From an uncultured virus (IMG/VR IMGVR_UViG_3300027752_001031) (lineage: Duplodnaviria; Heunggongvirae; Uroviricota; Caudoviricetes), in the IMG/VR virus record IMGVR_UViG_3300027752_001031: 20,000 bases of DNA; one strand, written 5' to 3'. The translations under genes and the position numbers were made by a program. This document shows positions 2,815-19,993 of the stretch, piece after piece; position 1 is the first letter of the stretch, and every line of letters begins with the position of its first letter. The notes beneath the pieces are model-generated. The model was not told where the DNA came from. It saw only the letters and a list, made by a program, of their open reading frames with translations, and ran no database searches.

Positions 2815-2816
2815 TG

Positions 2817-3308: not shown

Positions 3309-3310
3309 GA

Positions 3311-3889: not shown

Positions 3890-3890
3890 A

Positions 3891-4373: not shown

Positions 4374-4375
4374 GA

Positions 4376-4933: not shown

Positions 4934-4958
4934 TGATGCTCTCCTTATTTACTACTAT

Positions 4959-4967
4959 ATTATAGCA
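4959..4967 (-). promoter_or_regulatory. Extended -10 promoter (TGCTATAAT) for 4376..4933
   Basis: Minus strand reads TGCTATAAT, then an AAGGAG RBS and ATG. Confidence 0.65.
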
Positions 4968-4973
4968 TTAAAA

Positions 4974-5435: not shown

Positions 5436-5461
5436 TAACTGCCACTCCTTTTCTCAATTTA

Positions 5462-7219: not shown

Positions 7220-7238
7220 TTTCTATCTCCTAGTTTGA

Positions 7239-7685: not shown

Positions 7686-7715
7686 GTATCTATTATAGCG
7701 TGGTTTTAAACAATC

Positions 7716-8024
7716 TTAAATAATATAGTTACTGTAGCCTATGATCTGTATGCCAATTCCAGGTATATTGTTTGCACCGTAACCAGAAACACCAATATTT
7801 GTGAGCCTAATTCTAAATGGTAGAGTATCTTTTATCTTTATTACGGGATTAGGACTTACGATATTAGAAATGGGGTAGGTCTTTGTCTTTATGGACCTTG
7901 TTTTGGGAGACTTGTCTATGATTTTAGAATTTACATCTATATTTGATATTGATGATATGGGGTAGTTCTTCTGCTTAAGTTCTTTTGTTTTATAATCTTT
8001 AGAATAGATTACTGACTTAGCCAT
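7716..8024 (-). CDS. Basic hypothetical protein
   Basis: 102 aa, Lys/Ile-rich, YPIS repeated; TAATG coupling to the upstream gene. Confidence 0.65.
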   Translation of the reverse strand: MAKSVIYSKDYKTKELKQKNYPISSISNIDVNSKIIDKSPKTRSIKTKTYPISNIVSPNPVIKIKDTLPFRIRLTNIGVSGYGANNIPGIGIQIIGYSNYII

Positions 8025-8428
8025 TAATCAGTTACGTCCTCGACGATTACCAACTTACCCTGAGCTACCGTCCAGACTTGGCTGGTTGCTGCATTTGATA
8101 GCTGTATGTCAAAGATATCTCCAGTCTCTAGCTGCAAAGACTCACTAGCCGTTAGGGATACTGTAAACTCTCCTACTGCATCTTCAGCTAAGGCTGCTGG
8201 AGTAAGGGTTAGAATTACTGAGGCAGTGTCAGTTATGACTCCCAAGTCTGCTGCATTGGTTGGCCTCTTTACTTTCATGGCTATGACCCAGTCCGCAATG
8301 GTCAGCGGTGCCTTGTCGTCGTCAGTTACATATACCGTGAATGCAGCGGTATCTCCTCGAACAACTGTCCAAGTAACTTGTGGAGGTATGTTTCCAACGG
8401 AATATCCAGAATCTCTAAGCGTAGCCAT
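8024..8428 (-). CDS. BppU-like (baseplate-associated) domain protein
   Basis: 134 aa; W.VVRGDT..F.V...D...FDIQL pattern shared with 12506..12880 and 13726..14109. Confidence 0.7.
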   Translation of the reverse strand: MATLRDSGYSVGNIPPQVTWTVVRGDTAAFTVYVTDDDKAPLTIADWVIAMKVKRPTNAADLGVITDTASVILTLTPAALAEDAVGEFTVSLTASESLQLETGDIFDIQLSNAATSQVWTVAQGKLVIVEDVTD

Positions 8429-8454
8429 ACTAATAATTATAACACAGCATTGAG

Positions 8455-8483
8455 TTGAATTTTAGGTAAACTACTGCTATACT
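8455..8483 (+). promoter_or_regulatory. Housekeeping-sigma promoter for the hydrolase pair
   Basis: TTGAAT-17 bp-TATACT with TG extension, back-to-back with the minus-strand -10 at 8436-8441. Confidence 0.7.
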
Positions 8484-8498
8484 TATAAGTCTAAACTA

Positions 8499-8528
8499 CG
8501 GCACCCTTAAAAAGGTGTCTTTTCTTTT
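8499..8528 (+). terminator. Terminator-like hairpin in the 5' leader of the NlpC/P60 gene
   Basis: GGCACC-CTTAAAAA-GGTGTC followed by TTTTCTTTT, directly before the AGGAGG RBS. Confidence 0.4.
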
Positions 8529-8540
8529 AGGAGGTACAAC

Positions 8541-9161
8541 TTGAAAAAGATTGTAATACTAGGAGCGGTAGGAATTTTAATGAGCTGTTCGTCAGCTACC
8601 GTTGCGGATGATAGTGGATCATCGTTTAAAGCTACAAGTGTTGTTTACAGTAGTCCAAATGTTTTGGATATTTCTGTAAATCAAAAGATTGATATTATTG
8701 CTTATACCCTTAAGATGTTGAAAGAACAAGAGCAAGAAAAGCTTGAGCAAGCCAGAGCCCTTGCTGTTACAAAAAATGCTAATGCACTTAGGTATCAAAT
8801 ATCTGAGCTGTCAAAACATATTGATAAAACCAGATATGTGTTTAGTGGCTCTACCCCTGCTGGCTGGGACTGCTCAGGTCTTGTAGTATGGTTTTATGGA
8901 GAGCTGGGAATTGAACTTCCTCATTCAGCAACTAAGCAAGGATTTATTAAGCCAAAGTCTTCTACCCCAATGCCTGGAGACATAGTCGTCTTCCAGTATA
9001 ACGGTGCAAAAAACTTTGTTCATTCGGGCATTTACATTGGAAACAACGAAATAATCCATTCTGGATTCCGTGCTGGTATGCCAACAGCAATTATTGATTT
9101 AGATGACCCAGCTTTTAATGGGCAGACACATTACTTTATAAGGTTAATGGATTCAAAATGA
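8541..9161 (+). CDS. Secreted NlpC/P60-family peptidoglycan endopeptidase
   Basis: YVFSG..P.GWDCSGLV (catalytic Cys), PGDIV.F and HSGIYIG...IIH motifs; N-terminal signal or lipoprotein-like peptide; TTG start with AGGAGG RBS. Confidence 0.9.
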   Translation: MKKIVILGAVGILMSCSSATVADDSGSSFKATSVVYSSPNVLDISVNQKIDIIAYTLKMLKEQEQEKLEQARALAVTKNANALRYQISELSKHIDKTRYVFSGSTPAGWDCSGLVVWFYGELGIELPHSATKQGFIKPKSSTPMPGDIVVFQYNGAKNFVHSGIYIGNNEIIHSGFRAGMPTAIIDLDDPAFNGQTHYFIRLMDSK

Positions 9162-9748
9162 GAAACAAAACTATAGCTAAACTTGGCGTGCCCATTTTAT
9201 TAGCAGCAGCTTTAGCCGAGGCTGGTGCAATGCCAAATCTGGCTGTTTTTGCAGATGAGCCTGTTACTACCCAGACACTGGAAATACCTACTAAGGCTAT
9301 GGGCATTCTAGATATAATGATTTTGAATAAAAGATTTAAAAGATCTACCCCTCAGATTGTAGAAGTAGCGCCATGGCTGAAGCCAGAAATGCAGTCTATA
9401 AAAATATCGGACGCTGAACTAGTTGAGGTACTTCGTAATGTTGGGTTCGAGGGGTATGGCTTGAAGATGGCATGGGCTATCGTACAACAAGAGTCAACAT
9501 CTAGAATTTATGCACACAATAGAAATAGGTCTACGGGTGATAACTCATATGGCCTGTTTCAAATTAACATGATTGATGGCCTTGGCCCTAAAAGACTTGA
9601 GAAGTATGGGCTAGAAAAGAATGAAGATCTTTTTACCCCACTAGTAAATGCCCAGGTTGCTTTCAAGATATCTGGTGGTGGAGCTAATTGGGGTGCGTGG
9701 ACAACTTACAAAAAAGCGCAGGAAAACATTAACCAGTTTCCTGGCTAA
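9158..9748 (+). CDS. Secreted lysozyme-like / lytic transglycosylase protein
   Basis: AWAIVQQES (catalytic Glu), DNSYGLFQIN, N...A..I..GG..WGAW motifs; N-terminal signal peptide; ATGA overlap with the NlpC/P60 gene. Confidence 0.85.
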   Translation: MRNKTIAKLGVPILLAAALAEAGAMPNLAVFADEPVTTQTLEIPTKAMGILDIMILNKRFKRSTPQIVEVAPWLKPEMQSIKISDAELVEVLRNVGFEGYGLKMAWAIVQQESTSRIYAHNRNRSTGDNSYGLFQINMIDGLGPKRLEKYGLEKNEDLFTPLVNAQVAFKISGGGANWGAWTTYKKAQENINQFPG

Positions 9749-10371
9749 GCCAAGTCTCCTATTAGCAACCAAGAGTCCGATGCAGTTTTTACAATGGTTG
9801 CACCCGAATACTGCTCCCTTAGAGTTACTAAAGATTCTGCGCTAGCAAGAATTACCCCAGTTGCTGGGGCGATGGTAACTGTACCTAGGCCATATCTAGC
9901 TATGTCAATTCTTTGTCCAATTGCAAATGGTACTGTAGCATTTGTCGGAATTGTAATTGTTCTATTTGATGCTGAATCCATTATGATAAATTGACCAGAG
10001 TCAGACGCCTGAACCGTGTAGTCTGCAATCTTTGTTAAAAGCTCGGAACCATCATTTACGTATCTCCAGGATCCATTGTAGTAATACTGTATCTGGTTTA
10101 TCTGAGCTCCAGCATCTGTCTGTCTAACAAAGCATACAAGACCATTGATAGGTGTTGGCAAAGCTGTGTCTCTTGCTGTAGCGTTTTGAAAATTATTAAT
10201 GCCAGCTTCTGAGCGAACCACGTCCTCGAAGATTACTGTGCTTGAAAAGGTGTTAGTGTTTAACCAGTTATAGGCGGCAGCTGTGTTTGTTGCACCACCG
10301 ACGGCATACCAAGTATCTGTATTTTCATCATACATGTACGCTAGTTTTCCGCTGGTACTTATAGTTGCCAT
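9745..10371 (-). CDS. Putative tail-associated protein
   Basis: 208 aa; TITIPTNATVPFAIGQRIDI...QYSGATIVKT..DSWLLIGDL fibre C-terminal domain; stop codon overlaps that of the convergent gene. Confidence 0.8.
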   Translation of the reverse strand: MATISTSGKLAYMYDENTDTWYAVGGATNTAAAYNWLNTNTFSSTVIFEDVVRSEAGINNFQNATARDTALPTPINGLVCFVRQTDAGAQINQIQYYYNGSWRYVNDGSELLTKIADYTVQASDSGQFIIMDSASNRTITIPTNATVPFAIGQRIDIARYGLGTVTIAPATGVILASAESLVTLREQYSGATIVKTASDSWLLIGDLA

Positions 10372-10673
10372 TAGGAGATCTCTACCCCACTAAAATGAAA
10401 ATTAACTGTTGTTGCAGATGCTGAAGCACTTATAATTTCTAACTCTCCCATTACCTGCTTAATGTCCCAGACTATAGAATCATTTGCCAAAATCTCTGCA
10501 GTTTCCAGTATCGAAACACCATTAAGATCTATAGATACTGTTGCCGAAGTTCCAGCGGTATTTGTTATTATAATATTAGTAACTACTGAAGTAGTTGATG
10601 CTGGGACTGAATAAAGAGTTGTCTCAGTTAGTGATGCTGCTCCACGAAAAAATTGCTTGCTTACTGTTGCCAT
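10371..10673 (-). CDS. Small virion structural protein
   Basis: 100 aa; TTLYSVPASTTSVVTNIIITN...FHFSGVEI; AAAGGAGG RBS. Confidence 0.8.
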   Translation of the reverse strand: MATVSKQFFRGAASLTETTLYSVPASTTSVVTNIIITNTAGTSATVSIDLNGVSILETAEILANDSIVWDIKQVMGELEIISASASATTVNFHFSGVEIS

Positions 10674-10687
10674 AGACTCCTCCTTTC

Positions 10688-11314
10688 TTAGTAAACGCCC
10701 ATAATTGATGATATCTCTAGTGACTGGATATCAATTTGTTCCCAGGATAGCCCTGATGCTTCTGATGATTTTGCTGTAAGTACGTACCCGTTTGTTCCTG
10801 CTGCTAGCCTATTTAAAGAAGATCCACCAATACCAACAAGTAGGTCTCCCTTTGTCTGGACAGCTGTTTCAAAATCGTTGACTCTAATCCAGCTATTTAC
10901 TGCAGCGTCCCAAACAAAAGTTTCTTTTAGTGGGGAGTCTTTATCTACCCAGATCATTCCATCGGCAAGGTTGGTTGTAGGCTGTGTGTCACTGTATAGT
11001 GCCGTAGAATAGACTACACCTTGGTCTGCGGATGATGCAGAGTCCATCCATATAAACCCGTCATCTGGCGACACAGGCTCTGTGACGACATAGTCTGAAC
11101 CAATACCAGATTGATTTATAAGGTCAATCTGTTCCTGAACTGCATTAAGGTGGTATGCAATAGATGGGTTTTGAAGTAGTGCGGTGTTTTCATTTGTAGG
11201 ATTATAAGTTAGAGATCCGTAGTGATATAGCTTTATTGCTTCCTGAATATCTGCGGAATCGGCCAACGAAGGAATCTTCGTATTATATATTGAGCCTATA
11301 TTTTCAGCAGCCAT
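10688..11314 (-). CDS. Putative tail-associated protein
   Basis: 208 aa; P....DG.IW.D motif twice and TKGDLLVG...RLAAGTNGYVLTA..S...GLSW motif. Confidence 0.8.
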   Translation of the reverse strand: MAAENIGSIYNTKIPSLADSADIQEAIKLYHYGSLTYNPTNENTALLQNPSIAYHLNAVQEQIDLINQSGIGSDYVVTEPVSPDDGFIWMDSASSADQGVVYSTALYSDTQPTTNLADGMIWVDKDSPLKETFVWDAAVNSWIRVNDFETAVQTKGDLLVGIGGSSLNRLAAGTNGYVLTAKSSEASGLSWEQIDIQSLEISSIMGVY

Positions 11315-11333
11315 ATTTTATCACCATTTTAAA

Positions 11334-11924
11334 TTATACCACAGTAATGATTAAATGAATAACCTTATTACCAGAGATGGCGGTCCATGTGTCAGAGATG
11401 AGTTCAACGCCAGAGAATGTCATGTTTATGGTAGCTATCCCGCTTGCTACCAGGATACTGTTTATTGTGTAAGCTGCGGAGACAGGGGGTTGAATCGTTA
11501 CCCCAGGAGCTATTGATATCTCATACTGAATGTCATAGTTTTCTGGTATTCCGCCAGTTCCTGAAGAATACCCTGTTGGCAGCTCTATCTCAAACTCTAT
11601 TGTAGATGAGCCTGCTGAGAAGGTTGCACTTTGATTTTTCGCTACTGTATTAGGTACAAGCTTAAATCCTGGAATCCATGCCAAGACCTGAGTCCCTGGA
11701 ATAAAGTTGTGCTGGTATAAGAAAAGATAATTTGCATCGGAGGCTGCGGTGTTTATGCATAGGTCATACCTAGCAATAGCTGGAGAACCTGCTATGTTTC
11801 CTGGTATGTTTGGGTCACCAGAGGATAGATAAAATTGTGAGCCTGGAATACCAAAGATTCCCTTATCTACATTTACTGTTACTGATGCTGGTCCATCTAG
11901 AATTGACAAACTGCTTACCACCAC
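11334..11924 (-). CDS. Virion-module hypothetical protein (paralog of 11931..12506)
   Basis: 196 aa, GTG start; shares GSQ, YL.LYQ, L.PNT and terminal ITVV with its neighbour. Confidence 0.75.
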   Translation of the reverse strand: MVVSSLSILDGPASVTVNVDKGIFGIPGSQFYLSSGDPNIPGNIAGSPAIARYDLCINTAASDANYLFLYQHNFIPGTQVLAWIPGFKLVPNTVAKNQSATFSAGSSTIEFEIELPTGYSSGTGGIPENYDIQYEISIAPGVTIQPPVSAAYTINSILVASGIATINMTFSGVELISDTWTAISGNKVIHLIITVV

Positions 11925-11930
11925 TACCCC

Positions 11931-12506
11931 CTAAACAACCGTAATCAGTAGCTGTACTACCTTTTCAGAGCTGAGCGAAGACCATGTAGATCCATCAAAC
12001 TCTGCTGCAGATATTGTAATTGGCAATACGATGATGCCGTCAAATGTTGACAGCTCTCCTACCGTAATTGATGATGCTACTGGCAAATTATTCACTACGG
12101 TATGCTGAACGTTAAAGTTAGCAGATGTTACGTTGCCTACTCCGCTTAATGGAACTATGTTAATCACTGGAATAAAAACCTGGTACTGTCCATTTACGAA
12201 GGCTCCAGTGACATTGGTTAGGTATGTGTTTGGTATCAGTCTAAGAAGTCTTAGCCAAGTGTTAGAGCCGTCTACGCTAACGTACTGGTAAAGATATAGA
12301 TACTCATCGTCGGATGACGATAGGTTTATGAACATGTCGAAGATCTGTGGGGTTTCTCCAAGAACACCTGGGACTGATGGCTTGCCGAGCCCTACAAATA
12401 TCTGGCTTCCCCTGTCGCCCTGTGGACCAAAGTTAACATTTACTTCTCTGGTTGTTGGGCCACCAAGTACTGTTATGTCATCTGTCGACAGTAGTACTTC
12501 AGCCAT
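11931..12506 (-). CDS. Virion-module hypothetical protein
   Basis: 191 aa; FGPQGDRGSQIFVG.G.P motif; TAATG coupling. Confidence 0.8.
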   Translation of the reverse strand: MAEVLLSTDDITVLGGPTTREVNVNFGPQGDRGSQIFVGLGKPSVPGVLGETPQIFDMFINLSSSDDEYLYLYQYVSVDGSNTWLRLLRLIPNTYLTNVTGAFVNGQYQVFIPVINIVPLSGVGNVTSANFNVQHTVVNNLPVASSITVGELSTFDGIIVLPITISAAEFDGSTWSSLSSEKVVQLLITVV

Positions 12507-12880
12507 TATGCTGCTCCTGTAACCTGATCGGTGACGGTGATGCTACCAGTTAAGAGGGTATAGACGAGATCGTAAGAGCCAACCTGTGTAGTCTTTATTT
12601 CAACATCATACACGTACTGAGTTCCAGCAGTAATTAGTGCTCCGTCTGTGGCCCTAATGGCACAAAGAATGTGGCTGCCGTCTGCAGACTTTTCAGAGAA
12701 TGCCTCTACCTGATTGGCAACACCCGAGGTTCCCCTCTTGTCTGACATTGTAAAAGAAATGTCTGCGTTTGCATAGTTCGTCAGGTCAAAGGCTGCGCCA
12801 GTGGAGTCTTTAGGGTATACCCGAAACTCATAGGTGTCGCCCTTATAATATGAAATATTGAAAGTACCTGGAAATGACAT
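12506..12880 (-). CDS. BppU-like domain protein
   Basis: 124 aa; YKGDTYEF...KD..G..FDLT and YVYDVEI...LL.G.ITV motifs; leaderless start. Confidence 0.75.
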   Translation of the reverse strand: MSFPGTFNISYYKGDTYEFRVYPKDSTGAAFDLTNYANADISFTMSDKRGTSGVANQVEAFSEKSADGSHILCAIRATDGALITAGTQYVYDVEIKTTQVGSYDLVYTLLTGSITVTDQVTGAA

Positions 12881-12897
12881 AAATATATTATAGCACG

Positions 12898-13617
12898 TTA
12901 GCTTACTGAAATGTGCAGTGATTGCATTCTGACCGCACAGTCCAGGTCTGACCTCATCTGTAACACAATGCCAGCAACCCTGTCTGCTTCTTTTTCAAGG
13001 TATACAGTCTGGTTAACCGTGAACTCGTAGTCGTATTGATACTTAAGATTTCCAATAAAGTTTGTAACAGCGCTCTGAGTTCCTGGCATAAGAGACCTAA
13101 GCCACAATTCAGTGTTGTTTCCAAATGTAGATACGTAGATCTTGTAGGATATGTCAATCTTAGAACCCATAGCTAGTGGCTTCATGTTTATTCTCTTGGC
13201 AACGTCGCTATAGAGACCAACACTATCTTTTGGCAAATATCTTTCATTTGTTTTCTTGCTTAGTTCACCAATGCTGACTGTAACCCAGCCATCATCGCCT
13301 CTGTCTGCACCGAGCCTAACAAGCTTATCTGATGAGTTTTCGTAATATCCCCATCCAGGATTTTGTCCAGAAACAGATTGGTAAGACTGTCCATCTTTTC
13401 CGTTTTTGCCAGCAGGTCCTGGTGCTCCCTTTGGTCCTGCTTTTCCATCTGGTCCAGCTTCGCCCTTTTCACCTTTAAGGCCTCGCTGTCCCTCTTGACC
13501 AGGTACTGGCATATAGACTAAGTTAGAAACGTCTGGAGTGGGTGGTTGCTGCTGCTTCATAGCAGATGCGTAGTCAACCTTTTTATTAGATGGAAAATCC
13601 ATATTCTTACCAGACAA
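12898..13617 (-). CDS. Collagen-like (Gly-X-Y) repeat protein
   Basis: GQEGQRGLKGEKGEAGPDGKAGPKGAPGPAGKNGKDGQ; TTG start with AGGAG RBS (an alternative ATG lies 5 codons in). Confidence 0.85.
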   Translation of the reverse strand: MSGKNMDFPSNKKVDYASAMKQQQPPTPDVSNLVYMPVPGQEGQRGLKGEKGEAGPDGKAGPKGAPGPAGKNGKDGQSYQSVSGQNPGWGYYENSSDKLVRLGADRGDDGWVTVSIGELSKKTNERYLPKDSVGLYSDVAKRINMKPLAMGSKIDISYKIYVSTFGNNTELWLRSLMPGTQSAVTNFIGNLKYQYDYEFTVNQTVYLEKEADRVAGIVLQMRSDLDCAVRMQSLHISVS

Positions 13618-13639
13618 AAATGTGCTCCTAATTATTTGT

Positions 13640-13726
13640 TTATTTTACTACAAAAACTTTATCTTTAATTCTAATTATTGCTGGTAAGTGCGTTGTTGGA
13701 GCTGATACTTTAACGACTACTGACAT
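13640..13726 (-). CDS. 28-aa microprotein MSVVVKVSAPTTHLPAIIRIKDKVFVVK
   Basis: Manual translation; GGAGG RBS, TAATG coupling to 13726..14109, fills the intergenic gap. Confidence 0.65.
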   Translation of the reverse strand: MSVVVKVSAPTTHLPAIIRIKDKVFVVK

Positions 13727-14109
13727 TACAGATTTCCTCCAGTTACATCTGAAAGAACTTTTATGGTTCCAAGAACTGGAGTCCAAATAGTGCTTACGTC
13801 TAGAGTTACCTGTAAGTCAAATGCAAGCTCTGCGGATAGTGACCTATAGCCAGTGCCCCAGTACTCTGTTATCTCGTAAGGTGCAGTTATGTCCACATAC
13901 CCAACGCCTGGAGTTACTGTTAGCTGATCCAGGATGTCTCCAGAAAAATCGTAGGTGGTTGCTAGGTACTCCCACGTTGATGTATCGTAATAAGTGGCCT
14001 CGTCGCTATCCAAGAACTCTACTCTAATTGTTGCGGTATCGCCACGTACGACCTGCCAGGTAATGTTGGCGGGGTCGGCACCGAAAACTTCTGGGGAACA
14101 TACAGTCAT
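13726..14109 (-). CDS. BppU-like domain protein
   Basis: 127 aa; WQVVRGDTATIRVEF and FDLQV...WTPV.G.I.V..DVT; paralog of 8024..8428. Confidence 0.75.
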   Translation of the reverse strand: MTVCSPEVFGADPANITWQVVRGDTATIRVEFLDSDEATYYDTSTWEYLATTYDFSGDILDQLTVTPGVGYVDITAPYEITEYWGTGYRSLSAELAFDLQVTLDVSTIWTPVLGTIKVLSDVTGGNL

Positions 14110-14134
14110 AGTAATTAATTATATCACTAAATAT

Positions 14135-14190
14135 TGAAAAGGACTAGCACCCAGAGCGGTGGGTATGAGAGACATTCTGGGTACTAGCCT
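14135..14190 (-). ncRNA. Candidate ~55-nt single-hairpin small RNA
   Basis: TGATATAAT (14197-14205) lies 6 nt before AGGCTAGTACCCAGA-20 nt loop-TCTGGGTGCTAGTCCTTTT; one G-U pair works only on the minus strand. Confidence 0.55.
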
Positions 14191-14350
14191 ATATAGATTA
14201 TATCATAAGGTAACAGAATGATAACGGTAAATGATTATCAATCAATGAAGATTATTCTAAAAAGTAATCAAGAAGTAGAAGATTCTTCGGTAAAGAGTAT
14301 TATATATACAATCGTTATAAACATGTTATAGAAGAAATCAAGAAAAAAGG

Positions 14351-14378
14351 TTGACAATCATCAGAGTTGTGGTATTGT
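14351..14378 (+). promoter_or_regulatory. Promoter-like TTGACA-16 bp-TATTGT with no downstream ORF
   Basis: Consensus -35 and TG-extended -10 pointing into an AT-rich tract. Confidence 0.45.
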
Positions 14379-14484
14379 AGATCTTGTTATATTTATTATA
14401 TATTAAAAACTATTTCTTAAATGACATATCTTCTATATACTATATATAGGTTTATATATAACTGTCATATAAAAAGCTATAATA

Positions 14485-14787
14485 CTACTTATCTTTATTA
14501 CTAGCAAGATAATCTATAAACTTATCATAAAGATCATCCAATTTACGATCGAGCTTTTCAACCTTTAAATAAGTTTCGTTGGAAACGCTATCCGACATAT
14601 TCTGTCGAGCTTCAAGTCTATTTACCTGGTCCTTCATCGAACCACCACCATTTGGCTTAAACTCTGCTCTTATTTCATTAAAGTAGTGTTTGACCAACCA
14701 CCGAACTCCAAGGGCAGTAAAAGATAGTATTGTGGAAACAGAGATTATGATTCCAAGTAGTATTGAGGTTGTCTGCAGCGGGGTCAT
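14485..14787 (-). CDS. Single-TM membrane protein with coiled coil (actinophage holin-like/DUF2746-like)
   Basis: N-terminal hydrophobic helix, then FKPNGGGSMKDQVNRLE, resembling the NGGSSxxD motif of actinophage membrane proteins; leaderless start. Confidence 0.7.
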   Translation of the reverse strand: MTPLQTTSILLGIIISVSTILSFTALGVRWLVKHYFNEIRAEFKPNGGGSMKDQVNRLEARQNMSDSVSNETYLKVEKLDRKLDDLYDKFIDYLASNKDK

Positions 14788-15014
14788 AGTTACTATTATA
14801 GTTTATTTATTTTAAAAACTACTACATGTTGTGTCCCCCAATCGTCTGATATCCAAGCATTTGAGTTCTTTCGATTTTTAAAGCGTAGCGTAAAGTTCGT
14901 CGGCGGAATAAGAGATCCCCAAACACAAAAAAACAGATAAATATGCAATACACTTGCAATTTTCTCTGATGTGTGTTAGTATTCACATATCCAATAGCAA
15001 CCATATATCCCTTT

Positions 15015-15086
15015 ATAACGAAATGATAACGATTATATAACTTTTATGTAACGGTATTATAACGAAAAGGTAACGAATAGATAACG
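15015..15086 (+). repeat. Seven-copy RTAAC array with exact 11-bp period
   Basis: TAAC at 15016, 15027, 15038, 15049, 15060, 15071 and 15082, with variable spacers. Confidence 0.9.
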
Positions 15087-15343
15087 TTTATATAAACTAA
15101 CATATATATCTATAAAAGTATGGTATATAACATAATGGACTATAACAGATAACATTCATATCGAGCTATATGACCTATATCAGCCTATGTCCAATAGCAG
15201 ACAAAGATGTCATCGCCTGGATATATGCAATTAATGCCCATTTCTTGATATCAGACTAGGGTTATGTCTTGTATTGAGGGCTTTTTTGCATCAGAGCAGA
15301 CGAGCTGCTTGTTATACCTTCGAATTTATGATAGACTATATAT

Positions 15344-16093
15344 ATGAGAGATAAAGACACTATAACTGTTTATTGGGCTCCAGCTTCTTTTACTTATGGA
15401 TTAGAGTCTTGGAGTATGTTATACCGTGAGCCAGATTTGCTATTTTCAGAAATATCTAGACCTGGAAGTCTAGGAGACATGAAAAGATGTCCAGCAGCCA
15501 AAGATTTTATGAAGAATACATTTGTCTTTAGGTCAAACATTGCAGATTCGTTTAAGCTACCACCTTCAGAATGGTTAGATGAAAATGCTTTTTTGAGAGA
15601 AGAGTCAGTCCCCCTACCAGTAGACTCAAAGATTTCTATTTTAAAAAGAAGAGCTTCTTCTATCCCTGGACATATTAATGTAGAGTACAACCTTAAATGG
15701 ATTATGTTTTCGGATGAGCCACTAGAAGCTAACTTTACACCTCCTTATTTTCCATCTGTATCCCCTGTAAAGGATTCCTACTTGGCTATTGGTGAATATG
15801 ACATAGGACAATGGTTTAGACCTATAAACTTAGATTATCACATACCTGTAACGGCTACCGACTTTTCTATAAAAGAAAACGATCCACTATTCTTTGTAAA
15901 ATTCAACACAACTAAAAAGATTGTGTTTAAACAATTTAAATACACTCAAGAGTTAAACGAAATGTCTAAAGAGTTTCAGTTCTCTCCATCAATGTACGGT
16001 CTTAATAAAACATTAAGGTCAAGATATCTTGTCGCTAAGAGATCAAAGATGCCTGAAATGGTGCTTGCGGAGATCAGGAAGAACTTGATTTAG
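15344..16093 (+). CDS. Hypothetical protein (CP..KD and YDIG.WFRP motifs; possibly dUTPase-like beta-clip fold)
   Basis: 249-aa ORF; TGATAGACT -10 lies 6 nt before ATG with no RBS. The fold guess is weak. Confidence 0.75.
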   Translation: MRDKDTITVYWAPASFTYGLESWSMLYREPDLLFSEISRPGSLGDMKRCPAAKDFMKNTFVFRSNIADSFKLPPSEWLDENAFLREESVPLPVDSKISILKRRASSIPGHINVEYNLKWIMFSDEPLEANFTPPYFPSVSPVKDSYLAIGEYDIGQWFRPINLDYHIPVTATDFSIKENDPLFFVKFNTTKKIVFKQFKYTQELNEMSKEFQFSPSMYGLNKTLRSRYLVAKRSKMPEMVLAEIRKNLI

Positions 16094-16279
16094 TAATACC
16101 CAAAATCTGAAAAAATCTATATTTGAGGAAATCTGAATATTTCATAACTGTGTACGATACACACACAGGCTAAGATAAAACAAAATACTAGTACGCACTC
16201 ACGCCACCCCTGCCACCCTTATGAGGAATACTAGTGCCTGGTCGTTACCAATTTGTGACAAAAAAACTTTTGCGTTTAT

Positions 16280-16328
16280 CGGCGTGTCGGCTTGACTTTT
16301 TGACATTCTTGGTATAGTCTAGTAGTAT
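16280..16328 (+). promoter_or_regulatory. Tandem early promoters preceded by CGGCGTGTCG
   Basis: TTGACT(16292)-17-TAGTCT(16315) and TTGACA(16300)-17-TAGTAT(16323). Confidence 0.75.
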
Positions 16329-16366
16329 AAATAAAGATAAAGAAATAAAAAGAAAGGAAGTTCAAA

Positions 16367-16513
16367 ATGACTTCAACAGTATCAATCATCAAAGGTGAAT
16401 TTGCTCTATGCGAGATTTGCTCCAACCACACTCCAAGAGTGTCCGTTGTAGAAAACGGCTACCAAGAAATTGGTTGCCAGTATTGCTTCGAAGCCTATGG
16501 TGAAATAAACTAA
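16367..16513 (+). CDS. 48-aa zinc-ribbon-like microprotein
   Basis: MTSTVSIIKGEFALCEICSNHTPRVSVVENGYQEIGCQYCFEAYGEIN; two CxxC; GAAAGGA RBS. Confidence 0.75.
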   Translation: MTSTVSIIKGEFALCEICSNHTPRVSVVENGYQEIGCQYCFEAYGEIN

Positions 16514-16519
16514 CCATAG

Positions 16520-16541
16520 TGTCTGCCCCTAGTAGTATAAT
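16520..16541 (+). promoter_or_regulatory. PafBC-type promoter TGTC-N12-TATAAT
   Basis: TGTCTGCCCCTAGTAGTATAAT. Confidence 0.7.
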
Positions 16542-16562
16542 AATCTTAGAAAGGATAATAAA

Positions 16563-16724
16563 ATGCGATTCAATAAAATAGATAACCTAAACCTCAAAGA
16601 GGTCGAGCAGGAACTAGATACCCTGATAGCTATCGCAGGTGATGAGCCTACACTAGAAACTATCGAAGAAGTATCTGCTCTAATCAAAGTAGCGAGAGCC
16701 TTAGGCTCAGATAGGAAATGGTAA
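16563..16724 (+). CDS. 53-aa hypothetical microprotein
   Basis: MRFNKIDNLNLKEVEQELD...GSDRKW; GAAAGGATAA RBS. Confidence 0.75.
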   Translation: MRFNKIDNLNLKEVEQELDTLIAIAGDEPTLETIEEVSALIKVARALGSDRKW

Positions 16725-16819
16725 TGATAGAATTGACTTTTGACACTTGGGAAGAATTTGATAGGGCTATTGGTTCAATAGTTACCCTTGAAACTGCTAT
16801 CGCTACCCCCAGCGAATAG
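16724..16819 (+). CDS. 31-aa hypothetical microprotein
   Basis: MIELTFDTWEEFDRAIGSIVTLETAIATPSE; TAATG coupling. Confidence 0.6.
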   Translation: MIELTFDTWEEFDRAIGSIVTLETAIATPSE

Positions 16820-16840
16820 CAGGAATTTTTTTCCATTCAT

Positions 16841-16994
16841 CGGCGTGTCGCCTTGACAATATGCAAAAAGGATGCGGGCCAGATCTAGTGGTTAGTAGCC
16901 CTTATGACCACTATATGTAGGCCTAGAAAAAATGTAACAGATTGATAACAATAGGCGTGTTGCACTTGACAAATAGGATAATCTAGTATAGAGT
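16841..16994 (+). promoter_or_regulatory. Regulatory cassette 1: GGCGTGTC motif, tandem NrdR-like boxes, RTAAC pair, promoter
   Basis: CGGCGTGTCGCCTTGACAAT at 16841; boxes at 16876 and 16908; GTAAC/ATAAC at 16934/16945; AGGCGTGTTG at 16953; TTGACA(16966)-17-TAGAGT(16989). Confidence 0.75.
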
Positions 16995-17028
16995 TATAGC
17001 ATAACAAGAAATAGAAAAGGATAAAGAA

Positions 17029-17169
17029 ATGTACAGAATCACAGTAGCAAAAGCAGGGGATCCATTCACTGGCGGACTATACGCCACTACCTCAGTAGAT
17101 AACGCATTGGCTTACTATGAGGCAAATGGTTACACAGTGATAATGATTGAATCAACATCAGTCATCTAA
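17029..17169 (+). CDS. 46-aa hypothetical microprotein
   Basis: MYRITVAKAGDPFTGGLYATTSVDNALAYYEANGYTVIMIESTSVI; AAAGGATAA RBS. Confidence 0.7.
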   Translation: MYRITVAKAGDPFTGGLYATTSVDNALAYYEANGYTVIMIESTSVI

Positions 17170-17173
17170 ACAC

Positions 17174-17202
17174 TTGACAATGTCACACCCACCCTATAGA
17201 CT
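17174..17202 (+). promoter_or_regulatory. Hybrid promoter: TTGACA-17-TAGACT plus TGTC-N12-TAGACT
   Basis: TTGACAATGTCACACCCACCCTATAGACT. Confidence 0.75.
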
Positions 17203-17230
17203 TATAGCATAAATAGAAAAGGATAAGCAA

Positions 17231-17368
17231 ATGAATACCAGGACAGTAATAGGTTCATCAGTAGCCCTAGCAGTAATCTACTTCAGCTACCTAGCAACTA
17301 GGTTGCTTCAGTTGGGCTATGAAATTAGAATCGTCACACCAACAGAGTTTTTCTTGGGTGGTTTCTAA
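17231..17368 (+). CDS. 45-aa membrane microprotein
   Basis: MNTRTVIGSSVALAVIYFSYLATRLLQLGY...; hydrophobic helix; AAAGGATAAG RBS. Confidence 0.7.
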   Translation: MNTRTVIGSSVALAVIYFSYLATRLLQLGYEIRIVTPTEFFLGGF

Positions 17369-17478
17369 TGTGGGATACACTACAGTCTTGGGTGCTAGTA
17401 GCATCACTGGTTATAGGTGTTGGATACACTACCCTTCAGGCATACCGCCTAGCCAAATGGAAAGAAGATAACCAGTAA
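17368..17478 (+). CDS. 36-aa membrane microprotein
   Basis: MWDTLQSWVLVASLVIGVGYTTLQAYRLAKWKEDNQ; TAATG coupling. Confidence 0.65.
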   Translation: MWDTLQSWVLVASLVIGVGYTTLQAYRLAKWKEDNQ

Positions 17479-17480
17479 CA

Positions 17481-17637
17481 CGGCGTGTCGCCTTGACAAT
17501 TTTTTCGATAGGCAGCGCCCCCTACATGTAGTGGTTTAATGATTTAAGAACACTATATGTAGCCCCCCGAAAATTTATAACGAATGTGTAACACTACGGC
17601 GTGTCGTTTGTATAATGTCGGTGACCTGTGATAGGCT
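17481..17637 (+). promoter_or_regulatory. Regulatory cassette 2: GGCGTGTC motif, tandem NrdR-like boxes, RTAAC pair, PafBC-type promoter
   Basis: CGGCGTGTCGCCTTGACAAT at 17481; boxes at 17519 and 17550; ATAAC/GTAAC at 17577/17588; CGGCGTGTCG at 17597; TGTCGGTG-8-TAGGCT at 17616-17637. Confidence 0.8.
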
Positions 17638-17664
17638 ATAGCCATAACAGATAAAGGATAGTAA

Positions 17665-17850
17665 ATGAAATCAGTGTCAATACCAACCAACGATGTAAAC
17701 TCCGTAATGGGTCGCAAGACCACCTGCTCTGGCTGTGGCTATGTCCAGTCAACTGTAACGAGCTACTACCACGACCGCAAGCTTTGGAAGGCAACTCACA
17801 CTCTGGCATTCTGCCGTGATGAGAAATTGTTGCTGATGGCACACAGCTAA
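17665..17850 (+). CDS. 61-aa Cys/His microprotein (possible Zn binding)
   Basis: CSGC...H....C; AAAGGATA RBS; in the ORF track. Confidence 0.7.
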   Translation: MKSVSIPTNDVNSVMGRKTTCSGCGYVQSTVTSYYHDRKLWKATHTLAFCRDEKLLLMAHS

Positions 17851-17852
17851 AA

Positions 17853-17874
17853 TGTCTGACCCCTGTGCTAAGAT
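17853..17874 (+). promoter_or_regulatory. PafBC-type promoter TGTC-N12-TAAGAT
   Basis: TGTCTGACCCCTGTGCTAAGAT. Confidence 0.75.
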
Positions 17875-17900
17875 AAAACTATAATCGAAAGGATAACAAA

Positions 17901-18071
17901 ATGGCATACAGCAGAGAAGCTCACGAGCTACTACAAAAAACACTAGAGGAGCTAATAGCCCAACAAGGCGAATTGGCTTATCCAGCAATGGTTGGCTACC
18001 TAATGGTAAATGTTCCATTGGAAGACGCTAAGCGAATCGCAAAGCACGTTTCAGAAAAGGCGGTGGCATAA
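17901..18071 (+). CDS. 56-aa hypothetical microprotein
   Basis: MAYSREAHELLQKTLEELIAQQGELAYPAMVGYLMVNV...; GAAAGGATAA RBS. Confidence 0.75.
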   Translation: MAYSREAHELLQKTLEELIAQQGELAYPAMVGYLMVNVPLEDAKRIAKHVSEKAVA

Positions 18072-18220
18072 TGTCAGAATCACTTTGTGTCTACTGCCTC
18101 AACATTGTCAATGACTTTGTTTGTCCTAACTGTAATGAGTATGACGGGCTAATGCCCATTCCTGATGCCAAGAGGTATCTAGGCGAAGACTTTCCAGAGG
18201 AGTATAACGAGTATGTCTAA
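18071..18220 (+). CDS. 49-aa zinc-ribbon-like microprotein
   Basis: MSESLCVYCLNIVNDFVCPNCNEYDGLMP...; two CxxC; TAATG coupling. Confidence 0.75.
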   Translation: MSESLCVYCLNIVNDFVCPNCNEYDGLMPIPDAKRYLGEDFPEEYNEYV

Positions 18221-18320
18221 AGAACTAACTACCGCAGAATTAGAGGAACTAATCTTCAAGATAGACTTGATGTTGTCTGATGATACTGGTAAGCTATTCG
18301 TAACAAAGGAGAATAACTAA
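18213..18320 (+). CDS. 35-aa hypothetical microprotein
   Basis: MSKELTTAELEELIFKIDLMLSDDTGKLFVTKENN; GAGGAG RBS. Confidence 0.65.
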   Translation: MSKELTTAELEELIFKIDLMLSDDTGKLFVTKENN

Positions 18321-18457
18321 TGACATTCGGACTTCTAGTAATAATAATTGCCAGCTCATTTTTTGCTGGTGTCCTTACTCAGGGATTGTATGCCGAGGCT
18401 CAAGAGTCTAAGGCTATCGAGAGAAACAAGAGGGCTACATTCATAGCTCCATTCTAA
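18320..18457 (+). CDS. 45-aa membrane microprotein
   Basis: MTFGLLVIIIASSFFAGVLTQGLYAEAQ...; AAGGAG RBS and TAATG coupling. Confidence 0.7.
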   Translation: MTFGLLVIIIASSFFAGVLTQGLYAEAQESKAIERNKRATFIAPF

Positions 18458-18458
18458 A

Positions 18459-18550
18459 TTTGCTCTGGGATTGAAAACCCCAAACCAAGCGAGCAATACA
18501 TATTCCTCCAGCGGAAAGTTTCTTATCCTTTCATTCCGTTGGGGGAATAG
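18459..18550 (+). ncRNA. Candidate structured RNA with anti-Shine-Dalgarno-like loop
   Basis: TTGCTC/GAGCAA-closed domain (18460-18496), then a 16-bp stem 18501-18516/18534-18549 (two G-U pairs valid only on +) with loop AGUUUCUUAUCCUUUCA. Confidence 0.6.
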
Positions 18551-18623
18551 CTGGCGGCCCCCATTAGGTGAAAAAAATTCAATTAAGATCAATTAAGATA
18601 ACCCCCCGAACCCCTGGGTAAAA

Positions 18624-18645
18624 TGTCAGACCCCTGTGTTATAGT
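18624..18645 (+). promoter_or_regulatory. PafBC-type promoter TGTC-N12-TATAGT (leaderless gene follows)
   Basis: TGTCAGACCCCTGTGTTATAGT, 7 nt before the ATG at 18653. Confidence 0.75.
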
Positions 18646-18652
18646 ATAAACT

Positions 18653-18823
18653 ATGAAGAAGAAAACCAAGAAACTAGGAATGGCAAACGAGGCTAGGCGT
18701 AAGCTTGAGTCGCAAGCCCTATTCTTTGAGATGATGAAGAATCCTCACTTGGTCGCTACCCCTAAAAAATACAAAGGCAGTCGCCAGAGTAACATAAATA
18801 AAGCTATTAGAGAGAGTGAATAA
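18653..18823 (+). CDS. 56-aa basic microprotein
   Basis: MKKKTKKLGMANEARRKLESQALFFEMMKNPHLVATPKKYKGSRQSNINKAIRESE. Confidence 0.7.
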   Translation: MKKKTKKLGMANEARRKLESQALFFEMMKNPHLVATPKKYKGSRQSNINKAIRESE

Positions 18824-18924
18824 TGAACTACCCCTGCCAATGTGAATGTGGATGTGAGCAAGGCTACGATTATCAGTATTCAAGTATTTGTACAGAATGT
18901 CAGAATGGAGAGAAACATGGATGA
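18823..18924 (+). CDS. 33-aa Cys-rich microprotein
   Basis: MNYPCQCECGCEQGYDYQYSSICTECQNGEKHG; TAATG coupling. Confidence 0.65.
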   Translation: MNYPCQCECGCEQGYDYQYSSICTECQNGEKHG

Positions 18925-19039
18925 GCAAGCAATAGAGATTAGAGCAAACCTAGCAGAATACTATGCAACCCCCGAAGCCTACACGCTGTTTGACTTTGAA
19001 GAAATCTTCCAGGACCGAGACCCTTTTGAGTTTCTATAA
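18917..19039 (+). CDS. 40-aa acidic microprotein
   Basis: MDEQAIEIRANLAEYYATPEAYTLFDFEEIFQDRDPFEFL; GGAG RBS supports a start at 18917 rather than 18842. Confidence 0.7.
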   Translation: MDEQAIEIRANLAEYYATPEAYTLFDFEEIFQDRDPFEFL

Positions 19040-19061
19040 TGTCTGACCCCTATGTTAGGAT
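19040..19061 (+). promoter_or_regulatory. PafBC-type promoter TGTC-N12-TAGGAT (leaderless gene follows)
   Basis: TGTCTGACCCCTATGTTAGGAT, 6 nt before the ATG at 19068. Confidence 0.75.
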
Positions 19062-19067
19062 ACTAGT

Positions 19068-19208
19068 ATGATAAGTTATGTATGTGAAGACTGTAATCGC
19101 TTTATAAGTAATGTAGACACTGTCTATTCTTATTCCCTCAAAAATGTCTGTGGCAGATGTTATGCTATACAATGTGGACACCCCTCAACAAGAAAGTTGG
19201 TAAAGTAA
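19068..19208 (+). CDS. 46-aa zinc-finger-like microprotein
   Basis: MISYVCEDCNRFISNVDTVYSYSLKNVCGRCYAIQCGHPSTRKLVK; TAATG coupling to the next gene. Confidence 0.6.
   Translation: MISYVCEDCNRFISNVDTVYSYSLKNVCGRCYAIQCGHPSTRKLVK
19145..19166 (+). promoter_or_regulatory. PafBC-type promoter TGTC-N12-TATGCT inside a micro-ORF
   Basis: AATGTCTGTGGCAGATGTTATGCT. Confidence 0.55.
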
Positions 19209-19405
19209 TGAGTAAGTATCCTGATGTTCAAGTAGACCTAGTTGGCGAAGATGGCAACGCTATGGCAATAATGGCTAGAGTGTCTTCCGCTTTACGCCGT
19301 GCAGGAGTTAGCAGGGAAGAACGTGACGCTTACTATGAGCAGTCCACTAGCGGCGACTATGATAATGTATTGCGAGTAGCAATGGAATGGGTGGAGGTAA
19401 ACTAA
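19208..19405 (+). CDS. Small phage protein with GEDGNA motif
   Basis: MSKYPDVQVDLVGEDGNAMAIMARVSSALRRAG...SGDYDNVL; start at the TAATG junction is more likely than 19157. Confidence 0.8.
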   Translation: MSKYPDVQVDLVGEDGNAMAIMARVSSALRRAGVSREERDAYYEQSTSGDYDNVLRVAMEWVEVN

Positions 19406-19677
19406 TGGGCTCACTTCAAGCAGTAGAGATGGCACGGCTATCAAAGAATATAGAAGATGGTATCGCTTGGCACTTACAAAGTAATCACTTTCCTCCAGTG
19501 ACTAGGTCCATGGTCCAGGCTTGCATAGAGTCTATTGACGCTTGCAATGAAGGTAACTTTGATAAACTAATTAGTCTACCCGAAGGAGTAGGGTATAAAG
19601 GACTAACCGTTGCTCCAGCTAATGCTATTGTAGAGCAACACCACCTAGACGCTTGGATAGAATACGAGGACCTATAA
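19405..19677 (+). CDS. Phage hypothetical protein (WHLQSNHFPPV / IVEQHHLDAW motifs)
   Basis: GGAGG RBS and TAATG coupling place the start at 19405. Confidence 0.8.
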   Translation: MGSLQAVEMARLSKNIEDGIAWHLQSNHFPPVTRSMVQACIESIDACNEGNFDKLISLPEGVGYKGLTVAPANAIVEQHHLDAWIEYEDL

Positions 19678-19856
19678 TGAGATACACTGTTGAAGAAACC
19701 TATATCTATCAAGTAGAGGCAGACACGCCAGAGGAGGCTGTCGATGACTTTCATGAGTATGCCCAGGCCGATACCTCCGAAGCCGAGGATGAAACGGGAG
19801 TGGTATTCTTGCAGAACACTCTTACCGTGCATGACACTAGTGGCAAAGAGGTATAG
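19677..19856 (+). CDS. 59-aa acidic hypothetical protein
   Basis: MRYTVEETYIYQVEADTPEEAVDDF...; GAGGA RBS and TAATG coupling. Confidence 0.75.
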   Translation: MRYTVEETYIYQVEADTPEEAVDDFHEYAQADTSEAEDETGVVFLQNTLTVHDTSGKEV

Positions 19857-19993
19857 TGAGTAAATTATCAGAGCACTTTGGGCACGATGTTGTAATCGCT
19901 AAGTATACCGATGGGATATCGGATCCATCCTATTGCGTTGAGTGTGAAACTTGTTATGAAGTTATTCTTGATGAAGAGTTGACAAACGTCTAG
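19856..19993 (+). CDS. 45-aa His/Cys microprotein (H..H...ECETC)
   Basis: GTG start overlapping the upstream TAG; MSKLSEHFGHDVVIAKY...CVECETCYEVILDEELTNV; GAGGT RBS. Confidence 0.7.
   Translation: MSKLSEHFGHDVVIAKYTDGISDPSYCVECETCYEVILDEELTNV

Follow-up and report, generated by a model that had tools for sequence, protein, structure and literature searches.

Repeated intergenic cassettes of an uncultured tailed phage carry candidate host-regulator sites and lie at borders of module exchange

The DNA considered here is a 20,000-nucleotide stretch (hereafter the window) of an uncultured tailed phage, IMG/VR record IMGVR_UViG_3300027752_001031, in which two intergenic cassettes and a partial third, spanning 16244-17637, carry ordered operator-like motifs between small genes. 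Repeated words between phage genes are known from the stoperators of cluster A mycobacteriophages, to which the phage repressor binds and which are scattered across the genome as a whole. In T4-type phages, PeSLs are cassettes of a promoter and a stem-loop that mediate modular shuffling (PMC2839356). The individual motifs recall sites described in actinobacterial regulation. A 2026 study of WhiA and WhiB2 in M. tuberculosis derived the WhiA consensus GACACGCC from ChIP-seq and in vitro IDAP-seq, cites CGACACGCCGn, which ranked first in an earlier data set, together with cGACACGc of M. smegmatis, and reports that WhiA also binds the recA promoter, where its peak adjoins a PafBC-type P1 and a LexA-type P2 (PMC13473873). 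The WhiA box can lie on either strand and at a variable distance from the -35, with WhiB linking WhiA to sigma region 4 (PMC10243135), while the PafBC motif tGTCgg(N10)tA(N3)T consists of a -26 element and a -10 without a -35, and is read by sigma adaptation (PMC8635444). An NrdR operator has two 16-bp boxes (C4, A6, A8, T9, T11, G13) separated by a 15-16-bp linker, each with an AT-rich core (PMC13584703). For MtrA, the half-site n-A/G-T-a-A-C-a has been given for C. glutamicum (PMC6265350) and the site GT(G/A)ACC-N5-GT(G/T)AC for S. coelicolor (PMC5650626).

When the window is set against these systems, the whole proves to be a real, non-random and widely conserved regulatory cassette. We consider it fairly probable that such cassettes are host-factor-dependent control elements of the early promoters of a ~100-kb tailed phage, which double as recombination modules. 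Host RNA polymerase with sigma-A would read the cassette promoters, and activation would come from host WhiA, perhaps together with a phage WhiB, and from host PafBC, itself switched on by single-stranded DNA. NrdR, responding to the dATP/ATP state, and an MtrA-like response regulator would modulate these promoters or block read-through from upstream, and the same conserved words would be break-and-join points for module swaps between strains. Which proteins bind the cassettes, and in which direction they regulate, is predicted here from motif likeness; on this reading the start-up of the phage is probably tied to the state of the host cell.

Cassettes A (16841-16994) and B (17481-17637) both open with the 20-mer CGGCGTGTCGCCTTGACAAT, at 16841-16860 and 17481-17500, and the two identical copies flank a 640-bp unit. 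Behind it both have, in the same order, two 16-bp boxes, a pair of RTAAC words at 11-bp spacing, a second copy of GGCGTGTYG (G box) and a promoter; the distance from the RTAAC pair to the second G box is 20 nt (A) or 21 nt (B). In an alignment of A with B the 20-mer is identical at 20/20 positions, box 2 at 14/16 and the second G box at 8/9 when read in register (the aligner misregistered it), whereas only 22 of the 49 inter-motif columns (27 differ) and 5 of 21 in the upstream flank are identical. Because motif order and spacing were kept while the DNA between the motifs and upstream of them diverged, the cassettes are not a fresh duplication, and motif positions are kept preferentially between them. 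The preliminary description had claimed a shared 20-mer at 16841 and 17481, the same motif order in both cassettes, conservation of motifs rather than recent duplication, and a partial cassette at 16244-16328. All four points stand, the partial cassette having GTTACCAATTTGTGAC at 16244-16259, GGCGTGTCG at 16281 and TTGACA-17-TAGTAT at 16300-16328, and every motif class of the shared order lies far above chance. That description had overlooked the phased RTAAC array at 15013-15095, six more PafBC-type promoters reaching as far as 19166, the absence of a -10 at 16-18 nt from the TTGACA of either 20-mer, and the very large family to which the cassette belongs.

As we read this architecture, a cassette would begin directly behind the stop codon that closes the preceding small gene, and its first element would be a portable half-promoter, namely a WhiA-type box (CGACACGCC on the other strand), 2 nt and TTGACA. 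An operator slot would come next, here holding an NrdR-type box pair, then an OmpR/PhoB-type direct repeat (MtrA- or GlnR-like) and a second WhiA-type box. The working promoter would stand last, sigma-A-type in A and PafBC-type (-26 and -10, seemingly without a -35) in B and in five later units. The features are as follows, by position in the window.

14210-14225 (+) and 14314-14329 (-): two lone RTAAC-N6-RTAAC pairs in the AT-rich gap that separates the tail-fibre arm from the small-gene arm
15013-15095 (+): seven 11-bp units in phase, each containing RTAAC (repeat families D3 and D8), in DNA of 34% G+C; six overlapping RTAAC-N6-RTAAC at 15015-15085
16244-16259 (+): GTTAC-N6-GTGAC direct repeat GTTACCAATTTGTGAC of the partial cassette, with MtrA/GlnR-type spacing
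16281-16328 (+): WhiA-like GGCGTGTCG at 16281-16289, 2 nt, TTGACT/TTGACA; sigma-A-type promoter with TTGACA at 16300-16305, 17 nt, and TAGTAT ending at 16328
16520-16541 (+): PafBC-type TGTCTG-N10-TATAAT, preceding the open reading frame (ORF) 16563-16724
16841-16860 (+): 20-mer of cassette A; WhiA-like box 16842-16850, CC, TTGACA 16853-16858
16876-16891 and 16908-16923 (no strand): NrdR-type operator pair A, 16-bp linker (16892-16907), the six conserved positions present in both boxes
16934-16949 (+): GTAACAGATTGATAAC, RTAAC direct repeat with 11-bp period
16954-16994 (+): WhiA-like GGCGTGTTG at 16954-16962, 3 nt, sigma-A-type TTGACA-17-TAGAGT at 16966-16994, preceding ORF 17029-17169
17174-17202 (+): sigma-A-type promoter TTGACA-17-TAGACT, preceding ORF 17231-17368
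17481-17500 (+): 20-mer of cassette B; WhiA-like box 17482-17490, CC, TTGACA 17493-17498
17519-17534 and 17550-17565 (no strand): NrdR-type operator pair B, 15-bp linker (17535-17549); the boxes also form a 12-bp inverted repeat
17566-17575 (+): CCCGAAAATT, a copy of the family word CCCYRRAAWW, ~80 nt into the cassette
17577-17592 (+): ATAACGAATGTGTAAC, RTAAC direct repeat with 11-bp period
17598-17637 (+): WhiA-like GGCGTGTCG at 17598-17606, 9 nt, PafBC-type TGTCGGTG-N8-TAGGCT at 17616-17637, preceding ORF 17665-17850
17853-19166 (+): five more co-oriented PafBC-type promoters (repeat families D1/D2), at 17853, 18274, 18624, 19040 and 19145, heading small ORFs

The G box occurs five times in the window (16281, 16842, 16954, 17482 and 17598, all on the plus strand) where 0.07 would be expected. 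In its form GGCGTGTCG it corresponds, as the reverse complement, to the WhiA motif published for mycobacteria, and CGGCGTGTCG corresponds in the same way to the extended consensus CGACACGCCG. Read on the minus strand, four of the five copies give CGACACGCC and one gives CAACACGCC, and all agree with the 8-bp consensus GACACGCC. The boxes at 16281 and 16954 stand 2-3 nt 5' of the TTGAC(T/A) of complete promoters, and that at 17598 stands 9 nt 5' of a -26 element; relatives have the box in both orientations, in line with the published rule of promoter placement. The phage arrangement thus resembles WhiA/WhiB promoters such as S. venezuelae sepX (PMC10243135) and the M. tuberculosis regulon (PMC13473873) in that its box equals GACACGCC and lies just 5' of a -35 and in that relatives show either orientation, variable spacing and an encoded WhiB. 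It differs in that the phages keep an invariant 17-nt word which takes in the -35, that two window copies have no -10, and that the partner WhiB may be the phage's own. As a separate observation, a CGACACGCC box lies directly 5' of a textbook NrdR-controlled promoter in four viral contigs (L288, L316, L322 and L377), laid out as -35, box 1, a -10 within the linker and box 2; the pairing of putative WhiA-type and NrdR-type sites recurs outside the cassette family.

The pattern TGTCNG-N10-TANNNT was found nine times in the window against 0.94 expected, and seven of these matches are co-oriented at 16520-19166, each preceding a small ORF. The window promoters conform to the published 22-nt PafBC motif with its invariant GTC. 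A scan for consensus promoters gave weak first hexamers (CTGACC) at two of the PafBC-type sites, 17856 and 19043, and a GTAACA-17-TATAAT match at 17588-17616 that overlaps the -26 element of the cassette B promoter. As a positive control we used 30 recA loci drawn from 151 actinobacterial genomes. The pattern matched 10 of the 30 upstream regions, several with TGTCAGTGG, the commonest phage form, and two of the 30 had a G box, 2 nt, a -35 and then a LexA box, which is the layout of the phage 17-mer and is also present in the relatives L070 and L091, both of which carry TCGAACAGATGTTCGA. Given these shared layouts and the published WhiA peak beside P1 and P2, the phage cassette reads like an elaborated recA-type control region. 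Its likeness to PafBC-dependent (RecA-NDp) promoters and the recA control region (PMC8635444, PMC6789036, PMC13473873) extends from the 22-nt layout to the frequent TGTCAGTGG, as in Streptomyces-like recA, the WhiA-type boxes upstream, the LexA box of relatives and the G box, 2 nt, -35 arrangement of host recA P2. Unlike that region, the phage promoters are phage-borne, are repeated 7 times in the window and 11-14 times in relatives, and are fused to exchangeable operator slots, and their use of PafBC is predicted.

Two further observations concern these promoters. A DnaA-box-like TTNTCCACAG lies 32-34 nt 5' of the -26 element in five of the ten recA leaders having that element (L245, L248, L249, L252 and L258), and the extended word TTATCCACAG, spaced differently than in the recA leaders, occurs in 21/85 phage cassettes. 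Leaderless genes are common in actinobacteria. At 18624-18656 and 19040-19070 the ATG follows the -10 of a PafBC-type promoter by only 6-7 nt, and these small genes would be leaderless; the 249-amino-acid gene at 15344 is alike, with TGATAGACT, 6 nt and ATG.

RTAAC-N6-RTAAC is present ten times in the window against 0.22 expected (0/200 shuffles reached 10), with cassette copies at 16934 and 17577. The GlnR box, gTnAc-n6-GaAAc, has the same geometry as this repeat, which is why we call the window repeats OmpR/PhoB-type. Direct repeats of MtrA type stand at 16244, 16934 and 17577 and in the array at 15015-15085, and GTAACAGATTGATAACA, ATAACGAATGTGTAACA and GTTACCAATTTGTGACA fit the A/T-biased MtrA half-site repeated at an 11-bp period. 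They share with MtrA/GlnR sites (PMC6265350, PMC5650626) the half-site RTAAC(a) or GTnAC and the 11-bp-period direct repeat, and differ from them in having up to seven phased units (15013-15095) and a sequence from which the family of the binder is not readable. The seven-unit array is iteron-like and precedes the first gene on the plus strand; it may serve as a platform for regulators or as an origin, and it was not repeated in any of the five relatives found through the 249-amino-acid protein.

The two box pairs following the 20-mers are the only full NrdR-type pairs in the window (shuffle mean 0.002; 0/500 shuffles gave two or more). C4, A6, A8, T9, T11 and G13 are present in all four boxes, with linkers of 16 bp (A) and 15 bp (B), and between C4 and G13 the A/T content is 5/8 (box 16876), 7/8, 6/8 and 7/8, at or above the minimum of ~63%. 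The six positions, the 15/16-bp linker and the AT-rich core are thus shared with the NrdR operators of reductase promoters (PMC13584703). A scan of viral contigs for TAGTGG...CACNANATNTAG returned at least 120 matches; among those listed, 63 are full six-position pairs, 7 have a G box nearby and none is a near relative of this cassette.

The preliminary description had assigned the motifs to four regulators, and comparison with published sites bears out the sequence side of each assignment. The putative WhiA boxes match GACACGCC and CGACACGCCGn (PMC13473873) and the candidate PafBC promoters fit tGTCgg(N10)tA(N3)T (PMC8635444). The putative NrdR pairs agree in the six positions and the linker (PMC13584703) but not in promoter placement, and the candidate MtrA sites agree with the RTaACa direct repeat (PMC6265350), which does not separate them from GlnR-type sites.

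The 17-mer core GGCGTGTCGCCTTGACA is exact in at least 132 viral loci, which dereplication at 50% shared 12-mers reduced to 85 loci that are not independent of each other. Within 260 nt downstream, a co-oriented PafBC-type promoter was found in 57/85 and one on the opposite strand in 0/85; the same stretch holds a second G box in 53 loci, exact TTATCCACA in 34, exact TGTGA-N6-TCACA in 33, an RTAAC pair in 16 and GAAC-N4-GTTC in 4. The 260-nt upstream control gave mostly 0-8/85, the exceptions being a relaxed CRP-like pattern (24) and the opposite-strand PafBC-type motif (13), and shuffles gave fewer than 2. The motifs keep regular positions: hairpins reach to ~+50, the first slot lies at +36 to +78, CCCYRRAAWW stands at ~+80, and the second slot precedes a G box at +91 to +138, behind which come the promoter, the ribosome site and the ATG. 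Cassette B agrees with this scaffold, its NrdR pair filling slot 1 and its RTAAC pair slot 2. The slots are interchangeable to judge from their predicted contents, with DnaA-, CRP-, LexA- or MtrA-like boxes in relatives. Conservation of the motif order in relatives was partly borne out: the order recurs in the one near relative with the same slot content, L150, and a common scaffold recurs in 57/85. L150, a 1.8-kb contig filed under a bacterial bin, has an NrdR pair, then GTTAT-N6-GTTAT and CGACAC, so that the order is kept while two of its words are inverted. Direct observation covers the motifs with their statistics, the agreement with published consensus sites, the conservation of the scaffold across the family and the indel borders described below.

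Several smaller regularities were seen in the same loci. Many relatives (L004-L132) have two hairpins after the 17-mer, at ~+17 to +50 and with no T tail, of which one is CGCCTTGACAAAAGGCG and the other is GC-rich with compensatory stems (CCCACA/TGTGGG, CCCGCA/TGCGGG and CCCCCA/TGGGGG). The slot word TGTCCGWTTT recurs as a 9-bp tandem in 13/85, the palindrome TTGAGCGTCTCA followed by GGAATTACT in 16/85, and TTGTCAAGT faces the first TTGACA in relatives.

Five relatives, 82-113 kb long and including two complete genomes, have their GGCGTGTCG boxes, 4-9 per genome, confined to 3-4 kb (reversed control 0), and their 11-14 PafBC-type promoters lie within 9-10 kb, all in gene direction. A whiB gene (PF02467) is present in four of the five, including both complete ones; among 14 control genomes the family was matched in Corynebacterium only. 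No WYL, WhiA-HTH, Trans_reg_C (OmpR-type winged helix) or NrdR domain was found in any of the five. The exact 17-mer is also found in conserved intergenic DNA of several Actinomycetota families, and in three separate lineages (L163, L181 and L171) it stands just 5' of NlpC/P60 cell-wall hydrolase genes on the opposite strand. In Trueperella, the GCGACA of the box was seen 17 nt before GATAAT. The presence of whiB, the absence of the regulator domains from the relatives and the 17-mer in host intergenic DNA together favour host WhiA, NrdR, an MtrA-type regulator and PafBC as the binders, possibly with phage WhiB.

Several findings count against this reading, besides the non-independence of the 85 loci. 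In bacterial genomes the 17-mer was found at 95 loci in 596 Gb, which is near the chance expectation, so that the weight rests on the conserved contexts and not on the count; the 10-mer did not exceed its reversed control in one of three high-G+C genomes, and whole-genome counts in such genomes therefore say little. The whiB gene was seen in relatives, and the record of the same phage, the 43-kb fragment G001, ends at window base 10473. The RTAAC repeats fit GlnR-type sites equally. Unlike NrdR operators of reductase promoters, the phage pairs overlap no recognisable promoter and end 43 and 50 nt 5' of one, the genes downstream are 46- and 61-amino-acid ORFs without a family, and no reductase is nearby; box 16876 is borderline, its 5/8 A/T equalling the published lower limit. 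An NrdR pair was present in 0/85 dereplicated viral relatives, which confines this slot content to the present lineage. Finally, no -10 partner lies 16-18 nt from the TTGACA of the 20-mer in either window copy, and such a partner is present in some relatives only; a 20-mer without a -10 might serve for docking or as a roadblock, or might represent a scar.

That proteins encoded by the phage bind some or all of the words, for instance a stoperator-like repressor on the 17-mer or a MotA-like factor on the -26 element, is unlikely in our view, yet it is the rival that survives best. Like the stoperators of cluster A, the phage word is asymmetric, overlaps a -35-like TTGACA and lies between genes in one orientation; unlike them it has a different sequence, is confined to 3-4 kb and is also present in host chromosomes. 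Its identity over 17 nt in at least 132 loci exceeds the 8-10 nt of the WhiA consensus, and the many small ORFs without a known family leave room for phage factors (at E<=0.01, Pfam gave nothing for 17 of the 18 window ORFs, and the lone match lies below its cut-off). PafBC has itself been likened to AsiA/MotA of T4 (PMC8635444). Phage binders of this kind would nevertheless sit poorly with the same 17-mer in conserved chromosomal intergenic DNA of several actinobacterial families, with boxes equal to the published host consensus, with the perfect DnaA, CRP-type and LexA words of relatives, and with the regulator domains missing from the five relatives.

Related strains show what happens at the cassettes. 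In contigs of at least 80% likeness, taking the best-supported rows, 16513-16839 (a promoter and two ORFs) is absent in three runs, with a right border at the first letter of the 20-mer, and 17171-17627 is absent in two; 17871-18648 is absent in one run with both sides at a PafBC-type promoter, and 18471-19037 in one run with its right side at such a promoter. The joints among the rows listed are 16512/3 to 16840, 16860 to 17196, 17170 to 17628/35, 17870 to 18649 and 18470 to 19038; gene modules are thus exchanged at the cassettes, as expected of mobile cassettes. In one strain a stretch of 13 nt links the 20-mer to ATAGACT, which makes a complete promoter (TTGACA, 16 nt, TAGACT). This joining would explain the perfect -35 without a -10 as a portable half-promoter, other modules intervening in the window. 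Of the two substitutions listed for cassette B, one (17565) changes position 16 of a box and the other (17620) the N of TGTCNG; those in the partial cassette, 16248 C>T and 16257 G>T, both leave GTTAY intact. Among the best-supported rows this suggests that substitutions sit at non-critical positions.

Like PeSLs (PMC2839356), these are small repeated regulatory cassettes between non-essential small genes, at which modules are gained and lost; unlike PeSLs, described there as a plain sigma-70 promoter with a terminator, they carry ordered operator-like boxes and a -26-type promoter. Promoters are present, the hairpins of relatives have no T tail and a terminator scan found none in the cassettes. 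If the cassettes were mainly recombination modules of this kind, with words kept alike by exchange and regulator binding secondary or absent, one would expect what is seen at the joints, 7 of the 13 listed (5 events) having a side at a cassette or promoter word, as well as the two identical 20-mers flanking a 640-bp unit, an orphan -35 resembling a recombination scar, and the modular shuffling that PeSLs mediate (PMC2839356). Exchange alone, however, leaves the match of the words to host consensus sites unexplained, along with the differing slot contents on one scaffold between lineages and the survival of six NrdR positions and a 15/16-bp linker while 27/49 inter-motif columns differ. We therefore regard recombination as the principal function as improbable, although it is compatible with host-factor-dependent promoter control rather than exclusive of it.

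A decoy function, in which sites on replicating phage DNA titrate WhiA, NrdR and MtrA (DnaA and LexA in relatives) and so reprogram the host, appears very unlikely. Boxes for regulators of division, replication and dNTP (deoxynucleotide) supply are indeed packed into a few kb, the NrdR pairs and the -35 of the 20-mer are not placed as in working promoters, and no promoter role is obvious for the seven-unit RTAAC array at 15013-15095. The box positions are fixed relative to promoters, however, which is more than a pure sponge would require, and the sites are few: a related genome has only 4-9 GGCGTGTCG boxes, and the window has two NrdR pairs.

That the region is a replication origin or a structured RNA, with the palindromes as hairpins instead of operators, appears highly improbable. 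Every genome contains several cassettes, and behind each of them come a promoter, a ribosome site and an ATG. The AT-rich gap with its iteron-like 11-bp array, the DnaA-type boxes of relatives and the GC-rich hairpin with several compensatory stem variants after their 17-mer would suit an origin or a structured RNA, as would the folding of cassette B, which is better than that of shuffles (z -2.9, 1/200 shuffles as good). Cassette A folds no better than chance (z -1.25), as do the minus strands; RNAalifold on 40 cassette heads gave only a trivial GGCG/CGCC stem and no covarying pair, the alignment being poor around the second hairpin. A hairpin in 45/57 against a shuffle mean of 25 is, under a loose criterion, barely above shuffles, and no Rfam family matched either the window (E<=1) or seven host loci (gathering score).

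Host-factor-dependent control could also be part of something larger. It is possible, if doubtful, that a portable multi-input promoter grammar runs the early program of a large group of ~100-kb aquatic actinobacterial phages. The fixed WhiA-box/-35 word would recruit host WhiA with phage-made WhiB, the PafBC-type -26/-10 core would fire only after single-stranded DNA appears in the infected cell, exchangeable slots would add NrdR, MtrA, DnaA, CRP or LexA inputs gene by gene, and the same words would be the joints for early-gene shuffling between strains. If true, host-state logic and gene content would evolve by one mechanism.

If the cassettes are bound as we read them, these would be the first described phages to borrow PafBC sigma adaptation and the WhiA/WhiB pair, with as many as four or five host sensors brought together in a single short cassette. 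The literature on WhiA, PafBC or the NrdR box with phages and on freshwater actinophages, subscription journals and supplements not covered, yielded no description of such cassettes, in agreement with the earlier statement that none was known. For lytic phages that infect uncultured, slow-growing actinobacteria of aquatic habitats, the cassettes would provide a concrete way to study how early genes are timed to the DNA status, dNTP supply and division of the host, and they would supply natural, compact and sequence-defined test promoters for PafBC, WhiA and NrdR biology. They would also suggest a possible role for the whiB genes common in actinophages, and regulatory words that double as recombination sites would extend the PeSL idea beyond T4-type phages.

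The source is probably an uncultured aquatic tailed phage of roughly 100 kb with an actinobacterial host. The window is phage DNA of 42% G+C, with tail-fibre-like genes on the minus strand at bases 1-14100, a gap of 34% G+C at 14100-15340 and a plus-strand arm of small genes from 15344, in which the 249-amino-acid gene comes first, followed by ORFs of 45-96 amino acids; every unit of this arm has its own promoter and ribosome site. For the 249-amino-acid gene (15344-16093) Pfam has no family, and its only match is PHROG 17480, a group of unknown function. Five viral contigs encode relatives of its protein at 31-37% identity; two (L135 and L137) contain cassette words and the other three contain none. 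No isolate in the phage collection resembled the window by DNA or by this protein, and a 445-amino-acid tail protein matched two unannotated records.

The metagenome runs that contain the stretch 15300-19900 are labelled marine, seawater, brine and ice, not lake water, runs with small word shares being left out of this habitat inference. One brine run, one marine run and two marine RNA-library runs were compared with the window. Contigs of the RNA libraries (X23 and X24) span parts of 16280-19735; such contigs cannot show transcript ends and these libraries possibly contain DNA, so no evidence of expression is drawn from them. The brine and marine runs contain pieces with 0 differences to the window over 242-445 nt.

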